Positions 1-22,040 of a stretch of 22,040 nucleotides of DNA are shown here, one piece after another. The position numbers and the translations under genes are program-made. Source of the stretch: a virus. The stretch is taken from the UHGV virus genome UHGV-0332375. One strand, given 5' to 3'. The number at the start of each line of letters is the position of its first letter. The first letter of the stretch is position 1. Under the pieces are notes generated by a model, which did no database searches, was not told the origin of the DNA, and worked only from the letters and a program-made list of their open reading frames with translations.

Positions 1-2
1 AT

Positions 3-42
3 AAAAAGCCGGAAAGAATATCAAATCTTCCCGGCTTTTTTA
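3..42 (-). terminator. Rho-independent terminator (bidirectional hairpin) downstream of the SymE-like gene
   Basis: Imperfect inverted repeat AGCCGGAAAG / CTTCCCGGCT (about 7-16 and 27-36) flanked by an A-run upstream and a T-run downstream on the plus strand; lies immediately 3' of the minus-strand ORF ending at 47. Confidence 0.6.
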
Positions 43-46
43 TTAT

Positions 47-340
47 TTAACTCTCGTTCAGCACACTAAACATCCCGTCACGCATCCCCTTAACTGACTG
101 TTTAACCTGATAAAGTTCCCTGCGCAGTTCCTGTACTTCGTTGTTATCCGCAAGCAGGATCAGGCAGCCTTCCGAGATCTTCACGGTAACGCCCGTGCCG
201 ATCTCAAATCCCGCTTCTCTCAGCCATTTGGCGCTGATTTTGATCACTGGTGTATCGCTGCGGTTGGGCAGATAACCCACGGTACAGCGACGCTGTGTTT
301 TGGAAATGGCGACTTCTGGCGTAATATCGCGTTCAGCCAT
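47..340 (-). CDS. SymE-family (type I toxin-like, AbrB/SpoVT-fold) protein
   Basis: 97-aa ORF; segment PVIKISAKWLREAGFEIGTGVTVKISEGCLILLA closely resembles the core of E. coli SymE (…[33 protein letters not shown]…) as recalled from memory; SD-like GAGG upstream of the ATG; followed by a terminator. Confidence 0.7.
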   Translation of the reverse strand: MAERDITPEVAISKTQRRCTVGYLPNRSDTPVIKISAKWLREAGFEIGTGVTVKISEGCLILLADNNEVQELRRELYQVKQSVKGMRDGMFSVLNES

Positions 341-421
341 GATTAACTACCTCTGTTAGTTGCTTATGGTGAGCGGTGGTTAAGGGTGGCAGCCCTTAAT
401 CATCGCGCTATCTCAATGTTA

Positions 422-814
422 TTACTGCGTTTTTCCTATCACATTATCTAAAATCTCAGAAACCAGCTTCTGCTTCGTTCGCGGTAACTGGCTGATGATC
501 TCGATCTGCTGTTCCAGCCGTGACGCCGGGCCGCGCTTGCTGCTTCTGCGTGGTGCTGGCAATCCGAGCAGTTCATCCAGCGACAGGTTCAGGATCTGTG
601 CCAGTTGTGGTAACAGCGCTGCCGAAACCTTGAGCTTCCCGCCTTCGTAATGCGCCATCGTCTGCTGTGCAATCCCTAACTGTTCTGCCAGTTGCGTCTG
701 TGTCAGTTGCTGTTCCTTACGTGCCTGTGCGATCCGTGCGCCAAGCTGCTTAAAAAACTGTTCGTCTTTGGTGTTCATGGCCTGCTGTAGCTGTCCTGTC
801 GTTAACACTGCCAT
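422..814 (-). CDS. XRE-family helix-turn-helix transcriptional regulator
   Basis: HTH signature LTQTQLAEQLGIAQQTMAHYEGGK. The ORF track gives 422-850 from a TTG codon; I prefer the ATG at 814-812, which has a GGGAG Shine-Dalgarno 7 nt upstream (130 aa). Divergent from the primase gene. Confidence 0.7.
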   Translation of the reverse strand: MAVLTTGQLQQAMNTKDEQFFKQLGARIAQARKEQQLTQTQLAEQLGIAQQTMAHYEGGKLKVSAALLPQLAQILNLSLDELLGLPAPRRSSKRGPASRLEQQIEIISQLPRTKQKLVSEILDNVIGKTQ

Positions 815-839
815 GATGTTACTCCCTGTTTTAAATAAC

Positions 840-928
840 TTGGTTGACAATACCCTAATATAGAGTACTCTGCAACAGAGTTATTTTTACCCTAAGTCTA
901 TTGACAGGTTTTTACAGGAGTTCCCGTT
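840..928. promoter_or_regulatory. Divergent promoter/operator region between the XRE regulator and the primase
   Basis: Two TTGACA hexamers (844-849, 901-906), two TACCCTAA direct repeats (851-858, 889-896), a perfect 10-bp palindrome AGAGTACTCT (863-872) overlapping inverted repeat ACTCTG…CAGAGT; AGGAG SD before the primase ATG at 929. Confidence 0.4.
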
Positions 929-3751
929 ATGGCCCGCATCCCGGAAGCAGAGTTGCAGCACCTGAAAGCCGCCGTCTCCTTAGTCGCCGTGGTTCAGGCG
1001 CAGGGGCGACAACTGGTTAAGAAAGGGAAGGACTTCACCACGCTGTGTCCGTTCCATGACGAGAAAACGCCGTCCTGTGTGATCTCGCCCGAGAAAAACC
1101 TGTATCACTGCTTCGGCTGTAACGCAGGCGGATCGGTGCTGAACTGGGTGATGCAGACGGAAAAACTCAGCCTGCGTAAGGCAGCGGAACGTCTGAAAGC
1201 GGAGCTGGGCGACAATCCCGCCGTGGTGCCGCTGGTCACCAGGGATGAGCCGGAAATCTTCGCGGACGATGAAGCGGGCCGCCAGAAGCTGCTGGGCCGC
1301 GTGGTGGAGTTCTACCATCACACGCTGCTGAACGCGCCGGAAGCGGTGGCGTACCTGGAAAAGCGCCGTCTTAACCATCCTGAACTGGTCGCTGCCTTCA
1401 AACTCGGCTTCGCCAACCGTACCCTGCCTTACCGCCTGCCCGCCGTTAAATCACGGGCGGGCGAGAAGATCCGCGCCCGGCTTAAGGGTGTGGGTGTGCT
1501 GCGCGAGTCCGGGCATGAACACTTCACCGGATCGCTGGTTGTGCCGGTGATGGATCTGAACGGGCAGATCCGCGAGATGTACGGGCGCAAGATCACCGAC
1601 AGGTTGCGCAGCGGTACGGCGTTACACCTGTACCTGCCCGGTGCTCACGGCGGCGTGTGGAACGAGCAGGCGCTGATCGGGTCATCCGTGGTTATCCTGT
1701 GCGAATCGCTGATCGACGCCATGTCGTTCTGGGTCGCCGGAGTCCGTAACGTCACGGCGGCTTACGGGGTGAACGGCTTCACCGGTGAGATGCGGGCCGC
1801 ACTGCTGGCACACGGCGTTAAGCAGGTGCTGATCGCCTACGACAACGATCCGGCGGGCAATGAGGCAGCGGTGAAACTGGCTTCTTCCTTAGCCGCTGAC
1901 GGGATCGCCACGTTCCGCGTACTGTTCCCGGCGGGCATGGATGCGAACGGTTATCTGTGCCAGGTGGCAGAGCCGGAACAGGCGTTCAGTGTGTTGCTGG
2001 ACGGCGCGGTGCCCATGAGTGACCTGGCTGACGTGGCGAGTATCGCGCCGCAGGCCAGCGCGGAGCCTGCACACCTCACTTCGTTAGCCGCTGATGTTGC
2101 CGCGCTTCCGGCAGTTAGTGCGCCTGCGCCGGGCGTCAGCGTGGAAACCCTGGCTGATGGCGAACTGATGGTAGCCTTACCGGGCGAACGCTGGACAATC
2201 CGGGGCGTAAGCCGCAAAACCAACGCGGCGGCGATGAAGGTTAACGCGCAGGTGCTGGACACGGAAAGCGGCGTGGTGTTCGCCGATGCGGTGGATATGA
2301 TGAGCGCCCGCAGTCGCGGCGGTTATGCGCGGGCCGCAGCGGCAGAGCTTGGCCTGGCAGAAGGCGATCTGCGTCGCTCGCTGGGTAAGGTGCTGCTGGC
2401 GCTGGAGCACTGGCAGGCCGCACCGGAGCCCGCGAATGCCGCCCCGGAGATGACGCCGGAAGATCGGGAGGCAGCGCTTGAGTTGTTGCGCTCGCCGGAT
2501 CTTGCATCACGCATCGCGGCAGACATGGCGGCGTGTGGTGTGGTGGGTGAGTCCACCAACCTGACGGCGGCGTATCTGGCGGCGGTGTCGCGTAAGCTGG
2601 ACAGGCCGCTGGCGGTGCTGATCCAGTCATCGAGCGCGGCGGGCAAATCCTCGCTGATGGATGCGGTGCTCAACCTGATCCCGCCGGAAGAACGCTTACA
2701 GTACAGCGCCATGACCGGGCAGAGCCTGTTCTACCTCGGTGAAACCAACCTGCAACACAAGATCCTCGCCATCGCGGAAGAAGAAGGTGTGCGCCAGGCG
2801 GCGTATGCGCTCAAGCTGTTGCAGTCGGACGGCGAGTTAACGATCGCGTCAACGGGTAAGGACGACGCCAGCGGTAACCTGGTCACGAAACAGTACACGG
2901 TAAAAGGCCCGGTGATGCTGATGCTGACCACCACCGCCATCGACGTTGACGAGGAGTTACTCAACCGTTGCCTGGTGCTGACGGTGAACGAGTCGCGGGA
3001 GCAGACGGAAGCGATCCATGCGGCGCAGCGTTACGCGCAGACGCTGGAAGGACTGCTGGCGGCTAACGAAAAAAGTTACATCACTCAGCTTCACCAGAAC
3101 GCGCAGCGGCTGTTACGTCCGCTCAACGTGGTGAACCCGTTCGCGTCACAGCTCACGTTCATGAGCGACAAAACCCGCACCCGGCGCGACCACATGAAAT
3201 ACCTGACGCTGATCCAGACGATCGCCCTGCTGCACCAGTATCAGCGGGAGATCAAACGTGTGGAGCATCGCGGGCAGGTGGTGGAGTACATCGAGGTGAC
3301 GCGGGAAGACATCGCGCTGGCGAACCGCCTGGCACATGAAATACTCGGGCGCACCCTGGACGAAATGCCGCCGCAGACCAGAAAGCTGTTGCTGCTGATC
3401 CAGACAATGGTCGGTGAACTGGCAGCGGCGCAGCACTGCAAACCCGGCGAGGTACGCTTCACGCGCCGGGAGATCCGCGACTTCACGCAGTGGAGCGACA
3501 ACCAGCTTAAAGTCCACTGTATGCGGCTGGCGGAAATGGAATACCTGCTGATCCACGGCGGCAGCCGGGGTCACCTGCTGCAATACGAGTTGCTGTGGGA
3601 CGGCAGCGGCGACGGCTCGCACCTGTGCGGCCTGATCGAACCGGAGGACAGCCCGGTGTATGACTCCGGCAAGTTGGGGCAGAACGCGGACAGGTTGCCC
3701 TTAAGTTGCCCACATGTTGGGGCTAAGTTGGGGCTAAGTTGGGGGCGGTAA
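929..3751 (+). CDS. DNA primase, DnaG-like (CHC2 zinc finger, TOPRIM) fused to a large C-terminal domain with a P-loop-like motif
   Basis: 940-aa ORF. N-terminus CPFHDEKTPSC…YHCFGCNAGGS matches the DnaG zinc-binding domain (E. coli DnaG CCPFHNEKTPSF…YHCFGCGAHG); TOPRIM-like ILCESLIDAMS and AYDNDPAGNEAA; Walker-A-like SSSAAGKSS in the C-terminal half. The last ~30 codons overlap an iteron-like repeat array, so the exact C-terminus is uncertain. Confidence 0.85.
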   Translation: MARIPEAELQHLKAAVSLVAVVQAQGRQLVKKGKDFTTLCPFHDEKTPSCVISPEKNLYHCFGCNAGGSVLNWVMQTEKLSLRKAAERLKAELGDNPAVVPLVTRDEPEIFADDEAGRQKLLGRVVEFYHHTLLNAPEAVAYLEKRRLNHPELVAAFKLGFANRTLPYRLPAVKSRAGEKIRARLKGVGVLRESGHEHFTGSLVVPVMDLNGQIREMYGRKITDRLRSGTALHLYLPGAHGGVWNEQALIGSSVVILCESLIDAMSFWVAGVRNVTAAYGVNGFTGEMRAALLAHGVKQVLIAYDNDPAGNEAAVKLASSLAADGIATFRVLFPAGMDANGYLCQVAEPEQAFSVLLDGAVPMSDLADVASIAPQASAEPAHLTSLAADVAALPAVSAPAPGVSVETLADGELMVALPGERWTIRGVSRKTNAAAMKVNAQVLDTESGVVFADAVDMMSARSRGGYARAAAAELGLAEGDLRRSLGKVLLALEHWQAAPEPANAAPEMTPEDREAALELLRSPDLASRIAADMAACGVVGESTNLTAAYLAAVSRKLDRPLAVLIQSSSAAGKSSLMDAVLNLIPPEERLQYSAMTGQSLFYLGETNLQHKILAIAEEEGVRQAAYALKLLQSDGELTIASTGKDDASGNLVTKQYTVKGPVMLMLTTTAIDVDEELLNRCLVLTVNESREQTEAIHAAQRYAQTLEGLLAANEKSYITQLHQNAQRLLRPLNVVNPFASQLTFMSDKTRTRRDHMKYLTLIQTIALLHQYQREIKRVEHRGQVVEYIEVTREDIALANRLAHEILGRTLDEMPPQTRKLLLLIQTMVGELAAAQHCKPGEVRFTRREIRDFTQWSDNQLKVHCMRLAEMEYLLIHGGSRGHLLQYELLWDGSGDGSHLCGLIEPEDSPVYDSGKLGQNADRLPLSCPHVGAKLGLSWGR

Positions 3752-3803
3752 AACCGCCTGTAAGCCGCGCCAGTACTGGCACTGATGCGCCGCAAGTTGG
3801 AGC
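3671..3803. repeat. Iteron-like array of AAGTTGGGGC-type repeats (putative replication origin of the primase-bearing element)
   Basis: Copies at 3671-3680, 3692-3700 (AGGTTGCCC), 3703-3711, 3714-3723, 3725-3734, 3736-3746 and 3793-3803; three are in exact 11-bp tandem register (3714-3746). Read by eye from the sequence. Confidence 0.5.
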
Positions 3804-3903
3804 AGATGAAAAAACACTGTTCCCGACAGCCAGGAAAACATCACATCGTAACAGTAATACGCCGGAAAGCCGCCCGACACCCCATGACACGGCTCCGACA
3901 GCT

Positions 3904-3985
3904 CTGTAAGCCGCTCCGTGTCTGTTGTTGCTAACCATTCGCATGTATAAACAAACAGTTCATTTTTTACAAAAAACGCGCTATA
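3904..3985. repeat. Left copy of an imperfect ~85-bp direct repeat (CTGTAAGCCGC … ATGTATAAACAAACAG … ACAAAAAACGCGCT)
   Basis: Aligns by eye with 6306-6385: identical 11-mer CTGTAAGCCGC, 15/16 match over ATGTATAA(A/G)CAAACAG, similar T-run/ACAAAA/CGCT tail. A third partial copy of the 11-mer is at 3758-3768. Marks the GC-rich to AT-rich transition. Confidence 0.6.
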
Positions 3986-4126
3986 TACATCAATAGGTTG
4001 GAAGATGGTTTCTCCCCATCGATTATGAGTGTTAAAGCATTTTTATGACAATATGGTCATATTTTTGACCTAAGCTTATTTAGATGGTAGGATACATAAC
4101 CGTGATAAAGTAAATGGGCTGTCATT

Positions 4127-5266
4127 ATGATTTTAAATTTTGGTGCGAAAAATTTCTTCAGCTTTAAGGAAGGATTTGATATTTCATTTGAGCTTGGTAA
4201 TACTTGCCCAAAAGAAATTTCAAATGGGAAAGGCGTAACGAATATCCTTTGTATCAAAGGGGCTAATGGTTCAGGTAAAACGAATATACTAAAGGCACTA
4301 AGTTTTTTAACTAGTTTTATCTCTAATTCTTTTGATCTTAAACCAAATGCATATTTGCAGTTTGATCCATATTTTAATAGTAAATCTGAATCTGATTTCT
4401 ATATAACATTTGTATTAGATAATGTTATTTACAGATATGAAGCGTCAATGACTGACGTTGAGGTTAAACGAGAAGCTCTTTATAGAAAAAGTAAACGAGA
4501 AACTAAAGTTATTGAACGTATCAACGATGCAGTTGTGTTCACAATTAAAGAGTTTGATGAATTAAAAAGTATTAAAATGCGAAAAAATGTATCCCTTTTT
4601 AGCATGGCAATGCAATATGATGTTGATTGTGTTAGAGCAATTCATGAAAGTTTTACTAGGGTTATATCAAACGTCAGATATTCAGGTTTATTGACAGAAG
4701 TGCACGAATTAGAATATTTAAACGAATTTTATCATAATAACCCAGATGTATTCGATTTTTGTAAAAAAATTATAATGAAATTCGACCCCTCTATTCATGA
4801 TATTTATATAGCTAAAAATATTAATGATGACGGGAAAGTTACTTACAGGCCTTGGTTTGAGTTTGAGTTTGATGGTGAAACTGATATTTTAAGTTTTAAC
4901 CTGCAATCAAGTGGAACAAAATCATTATATAAGCAGTTAGGAAGTTATAAAGCTGTCCTGGCATTAGGTGGAACGCTTGTACTTGATGAGTTTGACATAA
5001 ATCTTCATCCTCATATACTTCCACATTTATTAGGTATTTTTATTGATGAGGAGCAAAACCCATATAATGCTCAGTTAATATTTACAACTCATAATACTGA
5101 GATTCTGGATTTTTTAGGAAAACATCGAACATATTTAGTCAACAAAAATAAGACTGAAAGTTATTGTTATCGACTTGATGAAATCCCTAGCGATATTTTA
5201 AGGAATGATCGCCCCATAACACCAGCCTATAATCAAGGTAAGATTGGTGGAGTTCCAAATTTATGA
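4127..5266 (+). CDS. ABC/AAA_21-family ATPase (abortive-infection / defence-type ATPase)
   Basis: 379 aa; Walker A GANGSGKTNILKA near residue 45, Walker B LVLDEFDINLHP, TTHN motif near the C-terminus; N-terminal MILNFGAKNFFSFKE typical of AAA_15/AAA_21 ATPases; strongly AT-rich codon usage; candidate promoter TTGACC-N17-TAGGAT about 4065-4093. Confidence 0.8.
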   Translation: MILNFGAKNFFSFKEGFDISFELGNTCPKEISNGKGVTNILCIKGANGSGKTNILKALSFLTSFISNSFDLKPNAYLQFDPYFNSKSESDFYITFVLDNVIYRYEASMTDVEVKREALYRKSKRETKVIERINDAVVFTIKEFDELKSIKMRKNVSLFSMAMQYDVDCVRAIHESFTRVISNVRYSGLLTEVHELEYLNEFYHNNPDVFDFCKKIIMKFDPSIHDIYIAKNINDDGKVTYRPWFEFEFDGETDILSFNLQSSGTKSLYKQLGSYKAVLALGGTLVLDEFDINLHPHILPHLLGIFIDEEQNPYNAQLIFTTHNTEILDFLGKHRTYLVNKNKTESYCYRLDEIPSDILRNDRPITPAYNQGKIGGVPNL

Positions 5267-5766
5267 GCAGAAAGTTTGGAAACTCCAATGCTCAAAAATT
5301 TCTAAAGGGATTTGAGGGGTTAGCAAGTCTTGACTCTGCAGAGTGTAATTTGGCTAGGAGATGTAAATTTAATTTCTCTTATTTTATAAGTAACCAAAAA
5401 GCTTGTGGTAAATTGTCGGATTGGGATAAAGATACAATATGTGTTTTTTTTGACAAGTTAATTGATTACTCTTCGAAATCGTTAAGTGATTTACAAATGA
5501 TCGGTTTGGGAAAGAATCGAAAAAAATTACTTTCTATTTATGATTCTTTCCCCAAAAATAGTTTGTTTGAACAACCTAAAAACATTCCTCATCAGGCTCG
5601 GTGGGGACGAATTAGATTAGATCAGAATAAAAGACTGATTGGGTTTGTTATTCCTGATGATTATCATGGACAAAGACATGAAGGCACTGGAATGTATTAT
5701 GATAAAAATACATTTTATGTTGTTTTTATTGATAATAACCATGGTTTTTATCTTCTTAATAAATAG
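5263..5766 (+). CDS. Hypothetical 167-aa protein, translationally coupled partner of the AAA_21 ATPase
   Basis: Start ATG overlaps the ATPase stop (ATGA at 5263-5266); same AT-rich composition; no motif I can assign to a known effector family (no HNH, TOPRIM, TM segments). Confidence 0.65.
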   Translation: MSRKFGNSNAQKFLKGFEGLASLDSAECNLARRCKFNFSYFISNQKACGKLSDWDKDTICVFFDKLIDYSSKSLSDLQMIGLGKNRKKLLSIYDSFPKNSLFEQPKNIPHQARWGRIRLDQNKRLIGFVIPDDYHGQRHEGTGMYYDKNTFYVVFIDNNHGFYLLNK

Positions 5767-5952
5767 CATTATCACTTCGGTTATCTATATGGGATATATA
5801 GGTGACCGAATTTTTAAGAAAAATGTTTTTAGTTGTAAAAACACATTGCGATATTTATTTCAGCATGTGGAACTGTAAGTATCTCGCATAATCGAAGCAT
5901 TCACATTTAGAGATCTTCTGGCATATTCATTCTGCCAACGAAGGAGATCGTT

Positions 5953-6295
5953 ATGCGTAAAGCCCATTTTACTGAGCATCAGATCATCGCTGTGATTAAG
6001 TCGGTTGAAGCCGGACGAACTGTCAAGGATGTTTGCCGCGAGACCGGTTTCTCTGAAGCGACCTACTACAATTGGAAACCTAAATACGGTGGTATGGAAG
6101 CCTTTGATATTAAAAAGATAAAGGATTTTGAGGACGAGAACAGGCGTCTCAAACAGATGTTTGCTGACATATCAGCCTTGAGAACAGGGCATTGAGACGT
6201 TATCGGAAAAAGCTTTGAAACCAGTCTTTAAGCGTGAGCTGGTCACTCATCTGATAACGACGTTCGGGCTTAGTATCCGTCAGGCCTGCCCCGGA
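5953..6295 (+). mobile_element. Truncated IS3-family insertion sequence remnant (orfA plus start of orfB)
   Basis: ORF 5953-6195 has the HTH_Tnp_1 pattern (FTEHQIIAVIKSVEAGRTVKDVCRETGFSEATYYNWKPKYGGME, similar to IS407-group OrfA); a shifted frame after an A-rich slippery-like stretch (GGAAAAAG ~6205) reads …LKPVFKRELVTHLITTFGLSIRQAC…, typical of an OrfB N-terminus, then breaks off about 6295 where repeat copy C begins. Higher GC than the flanking cargo. Confidence 0.6.
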
Positions 6296-6305
6296 CTTTA
6301 ATTTG

Positions 6306-6385
6306 CTGTAAGCCGCGTGATTCGTGCCCTGACACCCCAAATATATGTATAAGCAAACAGATCTTTTATAACAAAACCGCTCTTT
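6306..6385. repeat. Right copy of the imperfect ~85-bp direct repeat (CTGTAAGCCGC … ATGTATAAGCAAACAG … ACAAAACCGCTC)
   Basis: See 3904-3985; abuts the truncated IS remnant. Confidence 0.6.
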
Positions 6386-6428
6386 ACGCTTCAGGACTTA
6401 TAATATCGTGATTCCCCACATGACATCA

Positions 6429-7427
6429 TCAAGGCGTCGTTGCTTGAGTTGGATTCAGTTCAGAAACATTTGCAGCTTCTGCTTGCTGGACTATAGCTGT
6501 ACGGCGTTTCCGCTTTTTCTTCGGTTTTGGGCTAGTCATCTCTTTAATCCCCAGCATTTCCATGACTTCTGGCTGAGGTGGATAGCAAATACCTATGTCA
6601 GCAGGAGGTGTTGAGTGTCGATGTTTTTCAACTAACGATTTTTCATTATTCCAACGTTTGCAGAGGAAAATAATTCCTTCGAAGTAACGTTCATCTCTTT
6701 TCTGTGCCTCGAGAAGAATGAAAAATGCTCTTCTTTCTAGCCCTTCTAAAAATCCACAAAAGCATTCTCTGAGAAGTTTCTCGTCAAGATCATTGGCCTT
6801 AATTCCTTGAGCTAAAAACTCAAAGAAATTAAGAAGGTACACCAACCCGTTAATCCCTTTCACAACTTCATCTGGGACTTTTGAGTTTTTGAATTTTGGA
6901 TGGTCCGGGTCATCTCTCCAAACACATAGCTCTTTTGGAACATGGCGATTACCTCTCCATAAGTGCGTGAAATTACGCAAATGCGTTTGGTATTCAGTAC
7001 ATGTCCTAGTGCTAAGAACAACATTTAAAGTATGTTTTCTTCGATCACTTGCAGCGGAGGTGATGAATTGGATCCACCACCCCATACCAGCGATTGAACC
7101 GGCAACAATGATTGAAAGAGCTGTTTGGTAGGCATCATTATAGCGAAGTACGTAATATGCCAGCAGGAAAAGTACCCAAACCACACCTCCGAAAAGAGGT
7201 AGTAGTGGGTTTGTATCTGGAAATTTGTTACTGATTTTGTAGACGCTATATAGTGTTGTAAATGTTGCAAATGTAATCATTAACCCAGCATCGAACACTG
7301 CGTAAAACCAAGATGCAGTCTGTACTGCGTTTAAATTAAGTAAAATTCTCGTAATTATGAGACTGATCAAGATGCCAACCAGGACACCAAGCAGTGTTTT
7401 AGTTTTACTTTTTATCCATCGGTACAT
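6429..7427 (-). CDS. Hypothetical multi-pass membrane protein with C-terminal soluble domain and basic tail
   Basis: 332 aa; about four hydrophobic segments in the first ~120 residues (LLGVLVGILISLIITRILL, LMITFATFTTLYSVY, LFGGVVWVLFLLAYYVL, IIVAGSIAGMGWWIQFI); C-terminal KPKKKRKRR tract; AT-rich; lies just outside the prophage int-proximal end. Confidence 0.65.
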   Translation of the reverse strand: MYRWIKSKTKTLLGVLVGILISLIITRILLNLNAVQTASWFYAVFDAGLMITFATFTTLYSVYKISNKFPDTNPLLPLFGGVVWVLFLLAYYVLRYNDAYQTALSIIVAGSIAGMGWWIQFITSAASDRRKHTLNVVLSTRTCTEYQTHLRNFTHLWRGNRHVPKELCVWRDDPDHPKFKNSKVPDEVVKGINGLVYLLNFFEFLAQGIKANDLDEKLLRECFCGFLEGLERRAFFILLEAQKRDERYFEGIIFLCKRWNNEKSLVEKHRHSTPPADIGICYPPQPEVMEMLGIKEMTSPKPKKKRKRRTAIVQQAEAANVSELNPTQATTP

Positions 7428-7448
7428 TCTGAAAACCTTTTTGACGAT

Positions 7449-7475
7449 GAAAAAAACTCCTCAAAATGAGGAGTT
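7449..7475 (-). terminator. Rho-independent terminator between the prophage int-proximal end and the cargo island
   Basis: Perfect 9-bp stem AACTCCTCA / TGAGGAGTT with AAA loop (7455-7475) preceded by an A-run on the plus strand (U-run for leftward transcripts); position analogous to lambda tI/sib downstream of int. Confidence 0.55.
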
Positions 7476-7808
7476 TAGTTCAATGCATGTTAAGACTTAG
7501 CCTTCCCCGTAACCGATAGCGAAGTTTTTCATATAAGCCTCTCCTTTTGTACCTACTGTGTGGGTTAGAACTTCAGTTTGTTGTGAAATCTCTTGTTGAC
7601 TGAATAGTATCAAGAGCTGTGTGCGCTTGACAATAGGTTAGTACAGATTCAGAAAAACTTAAAACAAGAGCTAATTTCTTCAAAAAATGTATATTTATCA
7701 ATATATTATTTTGAGATAAAATTTCCATATCAAAGTAATAGTTCTTTTTAGGTATGTTGACAGGGCTAATTTTTAGACTATTAACATGGCATTTATATAT
7801 CATGAGCT

Positions 7809-8993
7809 TTATCCTGTACGGATTTCTCCATGCGGTACCACTACCCAGTTTGTATGATTTTTAGTGTATATTTTAGTCGATTTTGCATCGCTATGTGCCA
7901 TTCTTCCTTGTGGATCAATACCTTGTTTATCAAATAAGTGAGCAGCCAAAGCCCTTATCTCATGAAATGTAGGCCTTTCTTCCATTGCTAAGTGATTGCA
8001 CAGTCCGAGTTTGTCACGTACAGCAGAGAATGAGCGGCTTATGTAGTCCGGGGCCACTTGAGTAGGGTGCGAAACCTCTTTGCTACGTTTTACATTCCGC
8101 TTTGGAATTCTGTGGACAACGTAAGGACTGGCTACATTATCCCGACTGTTATCAATGATGCGTTTTAGTTCATCACCGATAGGGATTGCAACATGTGACG
8201 CCTCCTTTTTCTGTACCTTTTGCCGATGAATATATAGCATTCCGTATATTCCATTTTGTTGTTGCTCGAACCAGATACATCCACATATGCCGTCTTTAGG
8301 TTCGCGAATTGAGTAACGGATCCGCGATACTTCTAACCGTGCATGTGTCGTTTGTAAGGCTAAGTCCATTGCAGTTCTTAACCATGGTGCCGCGGCGCGG
8401 CGTATAGCCATGAAATGCTCGAATGATAGGCGTTGTCTTTTCTTCTCATCAGTCCTACGTTTTTTTTTCCTCGTTGCGGGGTTATCAAGCATTAGTGATT
8501 CGTCGACCGCATATGAGAACAACTTTTTAAGGAAGCCAACTTTTCTGTTCTGCACATTTGCGGATGAATTGTCATGATATTTGTTGATATAGGCGTTAAC
8601 GTGTTCAAGTTCGATATCGCATGCCGGAATATTTAAGAAAAAATCTTTTACGCGTAGAGCGTCATTTTTCCAGTCATCTAAGGTGCTCTGGGAAGGACGT
8701 TCGTCTTCGACAATTCGGGCCATTATGTGATCAACATGTTCAGCAAATGGTTTTGCTTCTCCGGTAACCCCGCCAGATTCTCTAATAAGATTATCCACTG
8801 ATGGGTATAATTCTGGTCGCATCCTCAGGTTGTACTCTCTGGCGATTGCAACGGCTATTGTCCGATCCTTACCTATATTTTTCTTTTTTCCGGTAATAAG
8901 TGTGAATTTATAAACACCTCGATCTTTATCAAAAACCAGATAATCAGGAAGATGTCTGTATTCTTTTTTACGTGGCCTTGCCGCCATGGTCAT
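7809..8993 (-). CDS. int: Tyrosine recombinase (phage integrase, lambda Int family)
   Basis: 394 aa; C-terminal catalytic region with PTFHEIRALAAHLF … GRMAHSDAKSTKIYTKNH; N-terminal basic arm-binding-like region; overlaps the xis stop. Confidence 0.9.
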   Translation of the reverse strand: MTMAARPRKKEYRHLPDYLVFDKDRGVYKFTLITGKKKNIGKDRTIAVAIAREYNLRMRPELYPSVDNLIRESGGVTGEAKPFAEHVDHIMARIVEDERPSQSTLDDWKNDALRVKDFFLNIPACDIELEHVNAYINKYHDNSSANVQNRKVGFLKKLFSYAVDESLMLDNPATRKKKRRTDEKKRQRLSFEHFMAIRRAAAPWLRTAMDLALQTTHARLEVSRIRYSIREPKDGICGCIWFEQQQNGIYGMLYIHRQKVQKKEASHVAIPIGDELKRIIDNSRDNVASPYVVHRIPKRNVKRSKEVSHPTQVAPDYISRSFSAVRDKLGLCNHLAMEERPTFHEIRALAAHLFDKQGIDPQGRMAHSDAKSTKIYTKNHTNWVVVPHGEIRTG

Positions 8994-9199
8994 CCCTCAT
9001 TTATTAACTTGCGAACAGCTTGACTAACCATTGAGTCGACTCCCCATTTTTCTGTTTCGCAGACAAAAACAGAACCGTCCACGATACGCCCCATGAGCAG
9101 ACCGTTCTCGACCCAGCGTTTTATCGTTCGGTTGTCAGGAATTGAGCCATCAGAGAATTCACGGCGTCCCCATTGGCTCGCTTTCATTAGTTTTGCCAT
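8990..9199 (-). CDS. xis: Excisionase (lambda Xis-like)
   Basis: MKASQWGRREFSDGSIPDNRTIKRWVENGLL resembles lambda Xis (LTLQEWNARQRRPRSLETVRRWVRE…); start chosen at the ATG at 9199 with GGAGA SD (track ORF 8990-9244 has an upstream extension). Confidence 0.7.
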   Translation of the reverse strand: MAKLMKASQWGRREFSDGSIPDNRTIKRWVENGLLMGRIVDGSVFVCETEKWGVDSMVSQAVRKLINEG

Positions 9200-9260
9200 G
9201 GCTGTTTCTCCACTTAACCCGCTGCACACGGGCAGTAATATCAAATTTCAGTCCTGATAA

Positions 9261-18374: not shown

Positions 18375-19127
18375 ATGAACCTTGAAGCCTTACCGAAATA
18401 TTACTCCCCGAAATCTCCAAAATTGAGCGATGACGCACCGGCGACAGGCTCTGGTGGTTTAACAATTACGGATGTAATGGCTGCGCAGGGGATGGTGCAG
18501 TCTAAAGCACCGCTTGGGTTTGCCTTATTCCTGGCAAAAGTTGGTGTTCAGGATCCTCAGTTTGCGATTGAAGGTCTGCTCAATTACGCGATGGCACTGG
18601 ATAACCCGACATTGAACAAATTGAGTGAAGAAACCCGGTTACAGATCATCCCTTACCTTGTGAATTTTGCCTTTGCTGATTATTCCAGGTCTGCGGCAAG
18701 TAAGGCTCGCTGTGAGCATTGTGCTGGTACTGGATTTCATAATGTATTGCGCGAAGTGGTGAAACACTCCAGAAGCGGGGAATCTGTTATCAAGGAAGAG
18801 TGGGTGAAGGAACTGTGTCAGCATTGTCATGGTAAGGGAGAAGTCAGCACAGCGTGCAGAGGGTGTAAGGGTAAAGGTATTGTCCTGGATGAAAAAAGAA
18901 CCCGGCTTCATGGCACGCCTGTTTATAAGGTTTGTGGGCGTTGCAATGGAAACCGGTTTAGCCGTTTACCAACCACACTGGCGCGGCTTCATGTCCAGAA
19001 GCTGGTACCAGACCTGACGGATTATCAGTGGTACAAAGGATATGCAGATGTCATTGATAAACTGGTTACAAAGTGCTGGCAGGAGGAATCTTACGCTGAA
19101 GCACAATTGAGAAAGGTGACAAGATAA
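18375..19127 (+). CDS. Q: Late-gene antiterminator Q
   Basis: 250 aa; multiple CxxC/HxxH zinc motifs (CEHCAGTG, CQHCHGKG, CRGCKGKG, CGRCNG); position after the rusA/KilA/DUF968 region and before the lysis cassette; GGAGAA SD. Confidence 0.7.
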   Translation: MNLEALPKYYSPKSPKLSDDAPATGSGGLTITDVMAAQGMVQSKAPLGFALFLAKVGVQDPQFAIEGLLNYAMALDNPTLNKLSEETRLQIIPYLVNFAFADYSRSAASKARCEHCAGTGFHNVLREVVKHSRSGESVIKEEWVKELCQHCHGKGEVSTACRGCKGKGIVLDEKRTRLHGTPVYKVCGRCNGNRFSRLPTTLARLHVQKLVPDLTDYQWYKGYADVIDKLVTKCWQEESYAEAQLRKVTR

Positions 19128-19329: not shown

Positions 19330-20115
19330 ATGTATGTTTTTGAGTTAATCAAGCCAGGCAGTAATCTTAAGTTTGAAAACAGAGAGTTAGAATGGACGTT
19401 TAATAACTTATTATCCCATTTAGAAACTGCATTTTATGATGCTAATGTAGCATTAAATTTATTCGAACAGGAAAGAACTAAGAATAACAGTAAATTCGAT
19501 AATATTTCTCAGACATGGCAAGCTGATGTACAGAAACGACAAGCACTGGAAATGCTGGTTCGTAAAGAGTTTGGTTATCAACCTTATGAATATTCAGAAC
19601 AGGTTTTTTCAGAGGTCGAGCTACGTCTAAAAAGAGAAAAATGGAATAACGGTGAATATCCGTTGGCTCATCAACACAGATTGATCTTCTTACATGCAAA
19701 ATCATTTCTCTACGCTTTGGATGCTATTGATAAATTTTTAAAGGTAATTTCAAAAGAAAATGGCGCGCCAGAGAACATTAAAAAATTGCATGAACAGCTT
19801 TCTAAAGACTTTCCGGATTTAAGAAAGGTAAGGAATTCAGCTCAACACATGGAAGACAGAGTTCGTGGGCTTGGTGCAGAGAAAGAACCAAAGCCAATAA
19901 AACTCAAACCTGTAAATAATATTCATGTTGTTGCACCTCAGGGGGCATTGATGTTAAATAACTTATTCGGAACTAAATTTGGGTGCACTATGGCTGATGG
20001 CTATTATGGTGAAGTAGATATTTCGACAGAGTCTTTGGCAAAGTTGCAAAATTTAATCCAAAAAGTTTTTAATTCCTTCAGTTGGGAAGGACCAAAGCAA
20101 CACCTTCCCCGATAA
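19330..20115 (+). CDS. Hypothetical AT-rich moron protein with R-x4-H (HEPN-like) motif
   Basis: 261-aa ORF with markedly lower GC than flanking phage genes; motif RNSAQH in DLRKVRNSAQHMEDR; occupies the Q-to-S position where lambdoid phages carry morons; followed by a strong terminator. Confidence 0.7.
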   Translation: MYVFELIKPGSNLKFENRELEWTFNNLLSHLETAFYDANVALNLFEQERTKNNSKFDNISQTWQADVQKRQALEMLVRKEFGYQPYEYSEQVFSEVELRLKREKWNNGEYPLAHQHRLIFLHAKSFLYALDAIDKFLKVISKENGAPENIKKLHEQLSKDFPDLRKVRNSAQHMEDRVRGLGAEKEPKPIKLKPVNNIHVVAPQGALMLNNLFGTKFGCTMADGYYGEVDISTESLAKLQNLIQKVFNSFSWEGPKQHLPR

Positions 20116-21500: not shown

Positions 21501-21794
21501 TTATTGTGAGCAATACACCCGCGCTTCCAGCGGAGTATAAATGCCTAAAGTAATAAAACCGAGCAATCCATTTACGAATGTTTGCTGGGTTTCTGTTTTA
21601 ACAACATTTTCTGCGCCGCCACAAATTTTGGCTGCATCAACAGTTTTCTTCTGTCCAATTCCCGAAACGAAGAAATGATGGGTGATGGTTTCCTTTGGTG
21701 TTACTGCTGTCGGTTTGTTTCCAACAGTAAACGTCTGTTGAGCACATCCTGTAATAAGCATAGCCAGAGCGGCAGAAAACAACATTTTTTTCAT
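21501..21794 (-). CDS. bor: Bor lipoprotein (serum-resistance, lysogenic conversion)
   Basis: 97 aa from MKKMLFSAALAMLITGCAQQTFTV…; essentially the lambda Bor sequence as recalled; lipobox ITGC (track ORF has a 16-codon upstream extension). Confidence 0.9.
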   Translation of the reverse strand: MKKMLFSAALAMLITGCAQQTFTVGNKPTAVTPKETITHHFFVSGIGQKKTVDAAKICGGAENVVKTETQQTFVNGLLGFITLGIYTPLEARVYCSQ

Positions 21795-22040
21795 CTTATT
21801 ATCCTGCATTGTTAAAAACGGCAGAATCCTATGTGACAACAATTAAACGATAGTTAAATGGATTGATGAAAATTAAAACTATATAGGTGTACGATCAGAC
21901 TATTGGAGGTAGTCAGGATTTGAATGTCAGTCTGTTGTCGGCATTCTGGCAATGCAATTTGGATAAAGCGGGGATTAAAAAGATAGAGGCGAGCCGGTCA
22001 GGTAGAAATGAATCAGGCTCAAAGTGAAGCGGAAAAGGTC

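Follow-up and report, generated by a model that had tools for sequence, protein, structure and literature searches.

How does a temperate phage come to carry a cassette of defence-like genes, and can the event still be read from the DNA around that cassette? Both questions are raised by the virus genome UHGV-0332375, a stretch of 22,040 nt (here called the window), which is part of an E. coli chromosome, 99.7% identical over its full length to strain 23AR1183, and which from 9.3 kb on is a lambdoid prophage of the mEp460/SfII type. In a preliminary description, two imperfect direct repeats of about 85 bp (3904-3985 and 6306-6385) that share the 11-mer CTGTAAGCCGC had been noticed around an AT-rich ATPase gene pair and the remnant of an insertion sequence (IS), and had been taken for an attachment-site (att)-like recombination scar through which the cargo was acquired. 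Here we report that the left repeat is the DNA just inside the left prophage junction, namely the working arm of the left attachment site (attL), and that the right repeat is a diverged arm of the same family without a core. The locus is probably a composite, formed when a deletion fused two elements lying in tandem at the same tRNA gene, with the inner arm as its dead remnant.

Whether the two repeats are truly related was judged from their alignment and from an independent profile. An 11-mer search of the window finds exact copies of CTGTAAGCCGC at 3758, 3904 and 6306, and with at most one mismatch there are five against 0.26 expected by chance. The block ATGTATAA(A/G)CAAACAG is present at 3943 and 6345, and the 11-mer pair 3904/6306 and this block pair share a single ungapped diagonal with an offset of 2402, which bears out the two shared motifs first reported. 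The original limits, however, were too short. Within them the ungapped identity is 47/82 (57%), which is the top diagonal of the window, narrowly (the next being 46 and 45), whereas the real homology covers ~135 nt, 3889-4022 against 6289-6420. The local alignment of 3889-4030 with 6289-6430 scores 26 (z ~13), above all of 2000 dinucleotide shuffles (8.6 +/- 1.4, maximum 14) and above the other segments of the window, which reach at most 18. An nhmmer profile made of five arms from other genomes, with the window sequence and the core left out, matches 3892-4020 with E=8.6e-25 and 6299-6400 (envelope 6291-6420) with E=3.7e-9, and finds no other significant match in the window. That two A/T-rich intergenic stretches resemble each other by chance is a practically negligible explanation: the 57% within the first limits, barely above the next-best diagonal, would suit it, but the independent profile match, the score above shuffles and other segments, and the position of the inner repeat, which is that of an arm in another genome (L023, below), all speak against it. 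The outer arm is 56% identical to the inner one, and the latter is 51-61% identical to every other arm compared. Each of the two stands at about equal distance from all other arms. They are therefore old homologues from different lineages, not the products of a recent duplication.

What, then, is the left repeat? The features that answer this question are as follows.

3873..3888 (no strand assigned): att core CCCGACACCCCATGAC, 16 nt, the left prophage junction (attL).
3889..4022, + strand: outer arm, the integrase-proximal (P'-type) arm of attL and of the phage site attP, with CTGTAAGCCGC at 3904-3914, block B ATGTATAAACAAACAG at 3943-3958, the IHF-like ATCAATAGGTTG at 3989-4000 and TTTCTCCCCA at 4008-4017.
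7809..8993, - strand: tyrosine integrase (int) with an N-terminal arm-binding domain, according to Pfam, PHROG and RefSeq annotation.

Read as its reverse complement, the core corresponds to the anticodon loop and 3' stem of tRNA-Pro(GGG), a gene called proL in K-12. In strain MJ-T the same 16 nt terminate a 48-nt 3' half of tRNA-Pro, which extends to the left of position 3873 and adjoins yejO. An intact tRNA-Pro(ggg) lies beside yejM at the opposite prophage end 41 kb off, and ahead of it stands another copy of the tRNA 3' half, carried by the phage. Because MJ-T has the split tRNA-Pro on the left and the intact gene at the other end, 3873-3888 is identified as the att core, and the prophage integration site is the anticodon loop of tRNA-Pro(GGG). 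Both attL and the right junction, attR, are precise at proL. The core shared with tRNA-Pro(ggg) and then the outer arm follow each other in MJ-T, LD91-1, N2250, GE3, LP50-1, K. variicola and phage Flotzy, and in each of the related prophages that were examined the left repeat comes immediately after the core, where prophage and host DNA meet, so that its att-like character, suspected from the start, is well founded. Flotzy, an isolated phage, has a complete attP that runs from a P arm through the tRNA 3' half and the core to an arm of the same family, and this arm ends 3 nt before the int stop codon. Given this layout and the arm-binding domain of the integrase (Pfam Arm-DNA-bind_1, 23.5 bits with a cut-off of 22; PHROG_1 integrase, 2.5e-29), the repeat is the int-proximal arm, P' by the lambda convention. 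Candidate arm-type sites of the form AAACAGT occur twice in the P arm and once in block B of P', candidate TTCCCC-like repeats three times in the P arm and once at the end of P', and a putative IHF-like site, ATCAAnnnnTTR, lies in the arm, its match being degraded in the inner copy.

The ~135 nt after the core are conserved in six further independent loci, LD91-1, N2250, GE3, LP50-1, AR435 and 2013C-4991, the last two of which carry attP-like copies. The blocks of the family are GCTGrrrrCCGC, TGTATAAACAAACAGT, CAAAA, CTATATACATCAATnnnTTA (which holds the IHF-like ATCAAnnnnTTR) and TTTCTCCCCA; the core-to-arm distance is constant in all relatives, and beyond TTTCTCCCCA the sequences part abruptly. 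At the position of the 11-mer other arms read CTGAGAGCCGC, CTGAGAACCGC, CTGGAGACCGC, CTGAAAGGCCC or TTCTTAGCCGC, and yet the 11-mer is identical at 3904-3914 and 6306-6316 despite the 56% identity of the two arms overall. This could be chance in a conserved motif, short-patch conversion, or constraint by a common binding protein.

The right repeat has the following neighbours.

5874..6288, + strand: truncated IS3-family element of ~415 bp, with its left end and orfA (5953-6195), cut internally at 6288.
6289..6420, + strand: inner arm, a fossil P'-type arm without a core, with CTGTAAGCCGC at 6306-6316, block B ATGTATAAGCAAACAG at 6345-6360, a degraded IHF-like site and ATTCCCCA at 6412-6419.
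6429..7427, - strand: DUF4760 protein of 332 aa (Pfam DUF4760, 2.7e-14), the second cargo and the occupant tied to the inner arm.

The IS remnant encodes an HTH_Tnp_1 domain (Pfam) and is 94% identical to 1225-1640 of an IS3-family copy in L006, which runs on differently past that point. It stops at 6288, and the arm homology starts at 6289, a position equivalent to the final 2 nt of the core. As described at first, the ATPase pair and the IS remnant do lie between the two repeats. The inner arm retains CTGTAAGCCGC, CAAACAG and TTCCCCA and has lost the IHF-like consensus. It has no att core, and IS sequence stands in the place of one. Because the crossover core is absent, the inner copy cannot recombine any more. 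Its end lies 9 nt from the stop codon of the DUF4760 gene, the same place as that of a working arm in L023. Within the inner arm, CCTGACACCCCA at 6328-6339 is 11/12 identical to the left part of the core (3873-3884); it sits in the most variable stretch of the arm family, and the probability of such a match by chance is roughly 1e-2 to 1e-3.

Might the inner copy be functional all the same? It could, for example, tune excision by offering Int, Xis or IHF an additional or decoy place to bind, or it could terminate transcription of the converging DUF4760 gene. We regard this as very unlikely. The best-conserved blocks of the family (CTGTAAGCCGC, CAAACAG, TTCCCCA) do survive in it, the 11-mer is the same in both copies though other arms differ, and the inner copy is invariant in 15 complete genomes. 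However, the composite has spread recently (98-100% identity overall), which makes invariance uninformative on selection. Moreover, only the inner copy has a degraded IHF-like ATCAAnnnnTTR, the core is missing, and relatives with a single arm do without another.

The position of the arms in relation to int directs attention to the interval between them, in which the following genes lie besides the one for the DUF4760 protein.

4127..5266, + strand: AAA_21 / AbiLi-like ATPase of 379 aa, the first gene of cargo 1.
5263..5766, + strand: partner protein of 167 aa, the second gene of cargo 1, overlapping the ATPase gene.
7573..7803, - strand: 76-aa open reading frame (ORF) between the DUF4760 gene and int, taken from the ORF list, with no family match.

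This interval was surveyed in 22 loci that have an arm and an integrase match on its right. From the arm end to the int stop codon there are 13 and 26 nt in two IMG/VR phages (L040 and L041) and 1.0-2.3 kb elsewhere, the 3.8 kb of the window being the longest of the 22. Eleven unrelated cargo types occupy the slot. They include SMODS+SLATT, HEC-08 (7e-166), PDC-S31/DUF2971 and a CapH/CapP-like pair of a helix-turn-helix (HTH) protein and an M78 peptidase, and several of the cargo proteins belong to no family. In all loci the cargo begins and stops abruptly, at the end of the arm on one side and at the stop codon of int on the other, and int is 88-92% identical among phages with unrelated cargo. 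Empty slots, with a single arm against int, are present in L040, L041 and the phages Flotzy and Eeyore. Related genomes with different cargo behind the same repeat, and empty sites with a single copy of it, had been named in the preliminary description as the places to look, and both exist. We also considered the arm as a promoter of the cargo and rejected this, given that the orientation of the cargo varies (+ in L003, L004 and L009; - in L007, L008 and L023).

Each half of the window's cargo occurs alone at the same att site, in both cases beside a tRNA-Pro half. In K. variicola (L060) there follow one another the tRNA half, the core, an arm (E=2e-35), an 82%-identical ATPase pair and int; window 3873-5765 aligns there at 77.7% and 7822-9231 at 72.7%, and 5766-7821 is without counterpart. 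In a metagenome-assembled genome (L023), the tRNA half is followed by a single arm (E=2e-11), a gene for an 83%-identical DUF4760 protein, with the arm ending ~10 nt from its stop codon, and int. The ATPase pair has been found behind other integrases as well. A phage beside a dus gene with a 360-aa integrase (L059, 7700-10952) retains a complete but diverged proL-type attP, consisting of the tRNA 3' half, the core CCCGACACCCCATAAT and an arm (E=1.6e-22), followed by an 87%-identical ATPase pair; here arm and cargo were kept together while the integrase was exchanged. In Enterobacter asburiae (L062-L065, 7785-10835), a 75%-identical pair makes up all of the cargo in the interval from icd to an integrase of e14 type, which is accompanied by excisionase, and in these icd-integrating phages no arm of the family stands alongside. 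The cassette therefore occupies att-int slots of phages with unrelated integrases.

These states bear on a further explanation, that the repeats are the terminal repeats or the target duplication of a small mobile cassette (a transposon, a miniature inverted-repeat transposable element, or something integron-like) carrying the ATPase pair. Direct repeats around AT-rich cargo, with an IS fragment inside, would fit it. We find it extremely improbable. Identity of 56% over 135 nt is unlike a target duplication, and the sole transposase is the IS3 stump, whose ends at 5874 and 6288 are not those of the repeats. The left repeat is in the same place in phages without any cargo, and K. variicola has the ATPase pair next to just one arm, whereas the icd-integrating phages have it with no arm of this family. 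Of the idea that the cargo came through an att-like scar, the scar is supported by the comparative tests. The two repeats, however, do not mark the borders of a single exchangeable cassette; they are arms that diverged long ago and come from two different elements.

How could two arms have come to stand in one slot? The history that we consider probable is the following. An element made of core, arm and AbiLi-like ATPase pair and a phage made of core, arm, DUF4760 gene, 76-aa ORF and int would have integrated in tandem at proL, the ATPase-pair element outside and the DUF4760 phage inside. A deletion with one breakpoint within a copy of an IS3-family element (6288) and the other where core and arm of the middle att site meet would then have removed the rest of the first element together with the middle core. 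With the surviving integrase acting on the outer core and the outer arm, everything from the ATPase cassette through the IS stump to the fossil arm would have become phage genome and travelled along. In the locus as it stands, the two arms flank the ATPase pair and the IS stump in direct orientation, no recombinase gene lies between them, and the inner site, being without a core, is not competent for recombination. From the arrangement of the composite and its relatives we infer the tandem intermediate, the order of events and the way in which the deletion arose.

An alternative with a single step, which we consider unlikely, is one illegitimate or short-homology recombination between two related proL phages (co-resident or co-infecting), or between a phage and a decayed proL remnant, by which the IS copy of one was joined to the att region of the other; arm and int would then be mere flanking homology for the swapping of cassettes. 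The sharp cargo edges in all loci and the 88-92% identity of int despite unrelated cargo are what such exchange would leave, and the lack of a tandem intermediate and the rarity of double arms point the same way. Exchange through flanking homology, however, replaces cargo and would not stack two arms. The breakpoint is located at the core/arm boundary, as a tandem with a middle att site offers, and with both single-cargo parents at the same tRNA site a tandem is the simplest source of the order and orientation seen.

Several observations weigh against the tandem fusion. No tandem intermediate, recognisable by an IS that is still whole, by a core at the middle att site or by leftovers of the first element's integrase, was found in a search that was not exhaustive. 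The composite is in its finished form in 15/15 complete E. coli genomes carrying it and in 20/20 contexts returned for the exact ATPase and DUF4760 proteins. Double arms are rare: a second arm is present in 0/16 IMG/VR arm loci and in none of the fetched E. coli loci. The inner arm is especially close neither to the L023 arm nor to any other arm. That the integrase works with the outer arm we infer solely from the two insertion sites of the composite, there being no induced phage with this int or cargo in the phage collection. A single-arm DUF4760 ancestor or an ATPase donor was sought among the exact-protein contexts and the complete E. coli genomes, which gave the composite only; the single states came from other species. 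We also looked at whether the integrase itself could have made the junction of IS and arm; the IS breakpoint resembles the core weakly (~9/14 by eye), and this we set aside as speculation.

Two cargos in one slot are not confined to the window. In N2250 (L004, 5818-10166), a cargo of a TPR protein and a small ORF is split from another, a DUF2971 protein, by a stretch left over from a different integrase (42% identical). This stretch between the cargos is a further sign of stacking, although the locus shows no second arm. SMODS nucleotidyltransferase and SLATT lie behind an attP-like tRNA half, core and arm in L009 (5900-8230) and L010 (5900-8227), and the same arrangement is found in six IMG/VR loci (L035, L039, L046, L049, L054, L057). 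In 7/8 of these the integrase is a C-terminal remnant, the match being full-length in L046. In two E. coli genomes the module of arm, SMODS/SLATT and int remnant is embedded in unrelated prophages. We count these modules, and likewise the proL-type attP kept in L059, among the traces that stacking and decay have left at this slot.

A more far-reaching proposal is that in tRNA-targeting lambdoid phages the interval from arm to int is an integron-like stacking platform, in which modules of core, arm and cargo are exchanged, added outward by attP x attL recombination and trimmed via pseudo-cores, both steps being mediated by the integrase. Pointers in this direction are the breakpoint on the core boundary, the core-like CCTGACACCCCA and the pseudo-core used in a primase gene (below). 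We rate this as unlikely. If it were true, fossil arms would be a general, readable record of the flow of defence genes between phages, and they might still bind Int.

The composite is not fixed at one site. At proL it is present in 11 complete genomes, which match the window only from 3873 on, and in four complete genomes, in addition to the window, it lies in a second place, a primase-xerC element. The part of the latter that is seen in the window is the left flank.

1..3872, + strand: symE, an HTH gene and the CHC2 primase gene (929-3751) of the primase-xerC element, with AAGTTGGGG iterons.

Homology to an uninterrupted primase-xerC element (L002, copy 1) stops at window position 3888. At the insertion point the uninterrupted element reads cccgaccccccatgacggtacgcc, which is 22/24 identical to the corresponding segment of the tRNA-Pro(GGG) anticodon arm. 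This tRNA look-alike, which may be the att site of the element itself or a coincidence, lies within the 3' end of the primase ORF (window 3850-3896; L002 7000-7060; L024, reverse complement of 7900-8460), and an xerC-type recombinase gene lies 200 nt downstream of it. In 23AR1183 the tRNA half carried by the phage stands at the right end of the prophage, and past it comes the remainder of the element with xerC. In proL as well as in the primase-xerC element, the core junctions are precise at both ends of the composite. The left flank is thus the target of a secondary-site integration and lies outside the prophage, and it is the whole 41-kb prophage that sits at this secondary site, with the outer arm at the junction. 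The ATPase cassette, together with the IS stump and the fossil arm, therefore lies inside a mobile phage genome.

A P4-like satellite hotspot, which the primase and the iterons might bring to mind, was rejected, the primase belonging to the separate primase-xerC element that the prophage entered. This element, with the symE toxin gene and the HTH gene upstream, is duplicated within an Rhs/ISEc1 region. In the window its primase ORF (929-3751; L002 4093-7059) has 940 aa, against 988 aa for the other copy that this genome carries; the difference comes from an 11-nt indel, an extra GTTGGGGCTAA iteron near 3713-3723, with a frameshift, and the insertion of the prophage is not its cause.

The third copy of the 11-mer, at 3758, had been mentioned together with the repeats. 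It is an exact copy and does lie beside the iterons, but it is not a copy of the arm, the match being non-collinear and the profile giving E=0.15. As a part of the repeat family or of a P arm it was rejected, for it lies 115 nt to the left of the core, and the P arm at attR is without the motif. It sits in origin-type repeats of the primase element and overlaps the hairpin ggcggtaaaaccgcc. A sister unit of these repeats reads GCAGACCGCGCC and has gcagaccgcgcc in place of the 11-mer. We treat the 3758 copy as unrelated to the arm family.

What does the acquired cassette encode? Its GC content, ~31% for the cargo against 41-62% in the flanks, sets it apart, and the two genes of cargo 1 are framed by two signals.

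4065..4093, + strand: promoter-like site, TTGACC-17-TAGGAT with an upstream TG, a match to the consensus only.
5776..5810, + strand: terminator-like hairpin with a 16-bp stem and a T run, closing the ATPase operon.

With a promoter-like site, two overlapping genes and a hairpin terminator, the operon looks self-contained as judged from its sequence signals. The ATPase matches Pfam AAA_21 (7.5e-37) and the PADLOC model AbiLi (PDLC02335; 1.6e-64), and, as in AbiL, its gene comes first in an operon of two overlapping genes. The 167-aa protein has no family match and no PADLOC match even at E<=0.1, so that an AbiLii-type partner was not found. The cassette is thus AbiL-like in its ATPase, yet it is no member of AbiL. 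The predicted fold of the 167-aa protein resembles the RelE/HigB/ParE toxins; a Foldseek search against the PDB gave no significant match. A sensor ATPase with a RelE-fold effector would be a reasonable working model for the pair.

Other parts of this prophage and of its relatives also carry accessory genes. At 19330-20115 of the window, between the gene of the Q antiterminator (18375-19127) and the holin gene, there is an AT-rich (32-38% GC) ORF of 261 aa without family match; this is probably a second cargo slot, in which related prophages have a DNA methyltransferase. A further position for cargo, outside the window, is the P-arm end of the same prophage (L011, 14879-17371), where the stretch from the tail-fibre genes to attR contains a DUF262 (GmrSD-like) gene and a DinI-like pseudogene. 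A Bor/Iss-family lipoprotein gene (21501-21842, - strand) stands downstream of the lysis genes, as is usual in lambdoid prophages.

Arms of the lambda-type att and integration into the anticodon loop of a tRNA gene are textbook matter. The locus agrees with lambda-type attP and attL in that the core is a segment of a host tRNA, a long arm with an IHF-like consensus belongs to an int with an arm-binding domain, and the phage carries the tRNA 3' half, so that integration restores the gene. It differs in that a cargo slot separates the arm from int, and in the second, core-less arm. The position of the slot has a parallel: in P22- and Sf-type phages the gtrABC lysogenic-conversion cassettes lie between attP and int, and specialised transduction takes up DNA next to attL. 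Here, too, non-essential cargo is in this position and DNA from just outside the prophage end was apparently acquired. However, the cargo is defence-like and the capture appears to have gone via the legitimate outer att site and not through aberrant excision.

Comparison may also be made with accretion, in which integrative and conjugative elements (ICEs), integrative mobilizable elements and cis-mobilizable elements with a common att site integrate side by side and are moved as a unit by a single integrase (PMC5704250, PMC13651849). In such arrays the internal att sites and recombinase genes decay, and recently phage-ICE tandems have been described (PMC5704250, PMC13651849). Unlike these systems, both partners here would be prophage-type modules of att and cargo, the loss of the middle core makes the fusion irreversible, and the tandem stage itself is a reconstruction. 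In the P2/P4 hotspots, conserved phage genes flank a slot of constant position that can be filled by any of many different cassettes, often anti-phage ones (PMC9122126, PMC13586616), for which the mechanism of exchange was left open in the survey, with transposition and homologous recombination listed as unproven (PMC13586616). The arm-int slot likewise holds alternative cassettes (the AbiLi-like pair, SMODS+SLATT, HEC-08, PDC-S31/DUF2971, the CapH/CapP-like pair), but it belongs to another phage family, lies between the attP arm and the int stop codon, and keeps a physical trace of acquisition. A literature search on a proL prophage hotspot returned nothing relevant, and the arm-int slot is undescribed in the papers searched.

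What the locus offers, then, is a retained physical trace of one acquisition of a defence cassette by a temperate phage. On the history favoured here, the phage took over the whole att-cargo module of another element next to it in this tRNA gene, and the module has since spread as part of the phage. The collection index lists ~900 and ~1200 blocks for the two cargo proteins. To the known cases this would add a lambdoid-phage example of a defence-like cassette captured along with its own att arm. The slot of the proL phages, which is seen empty, singly filled and stacked and has uncharacterised occupants, is a cheap source of candidate defence genes, and such slots can be searched for with the arm profile as a marker.

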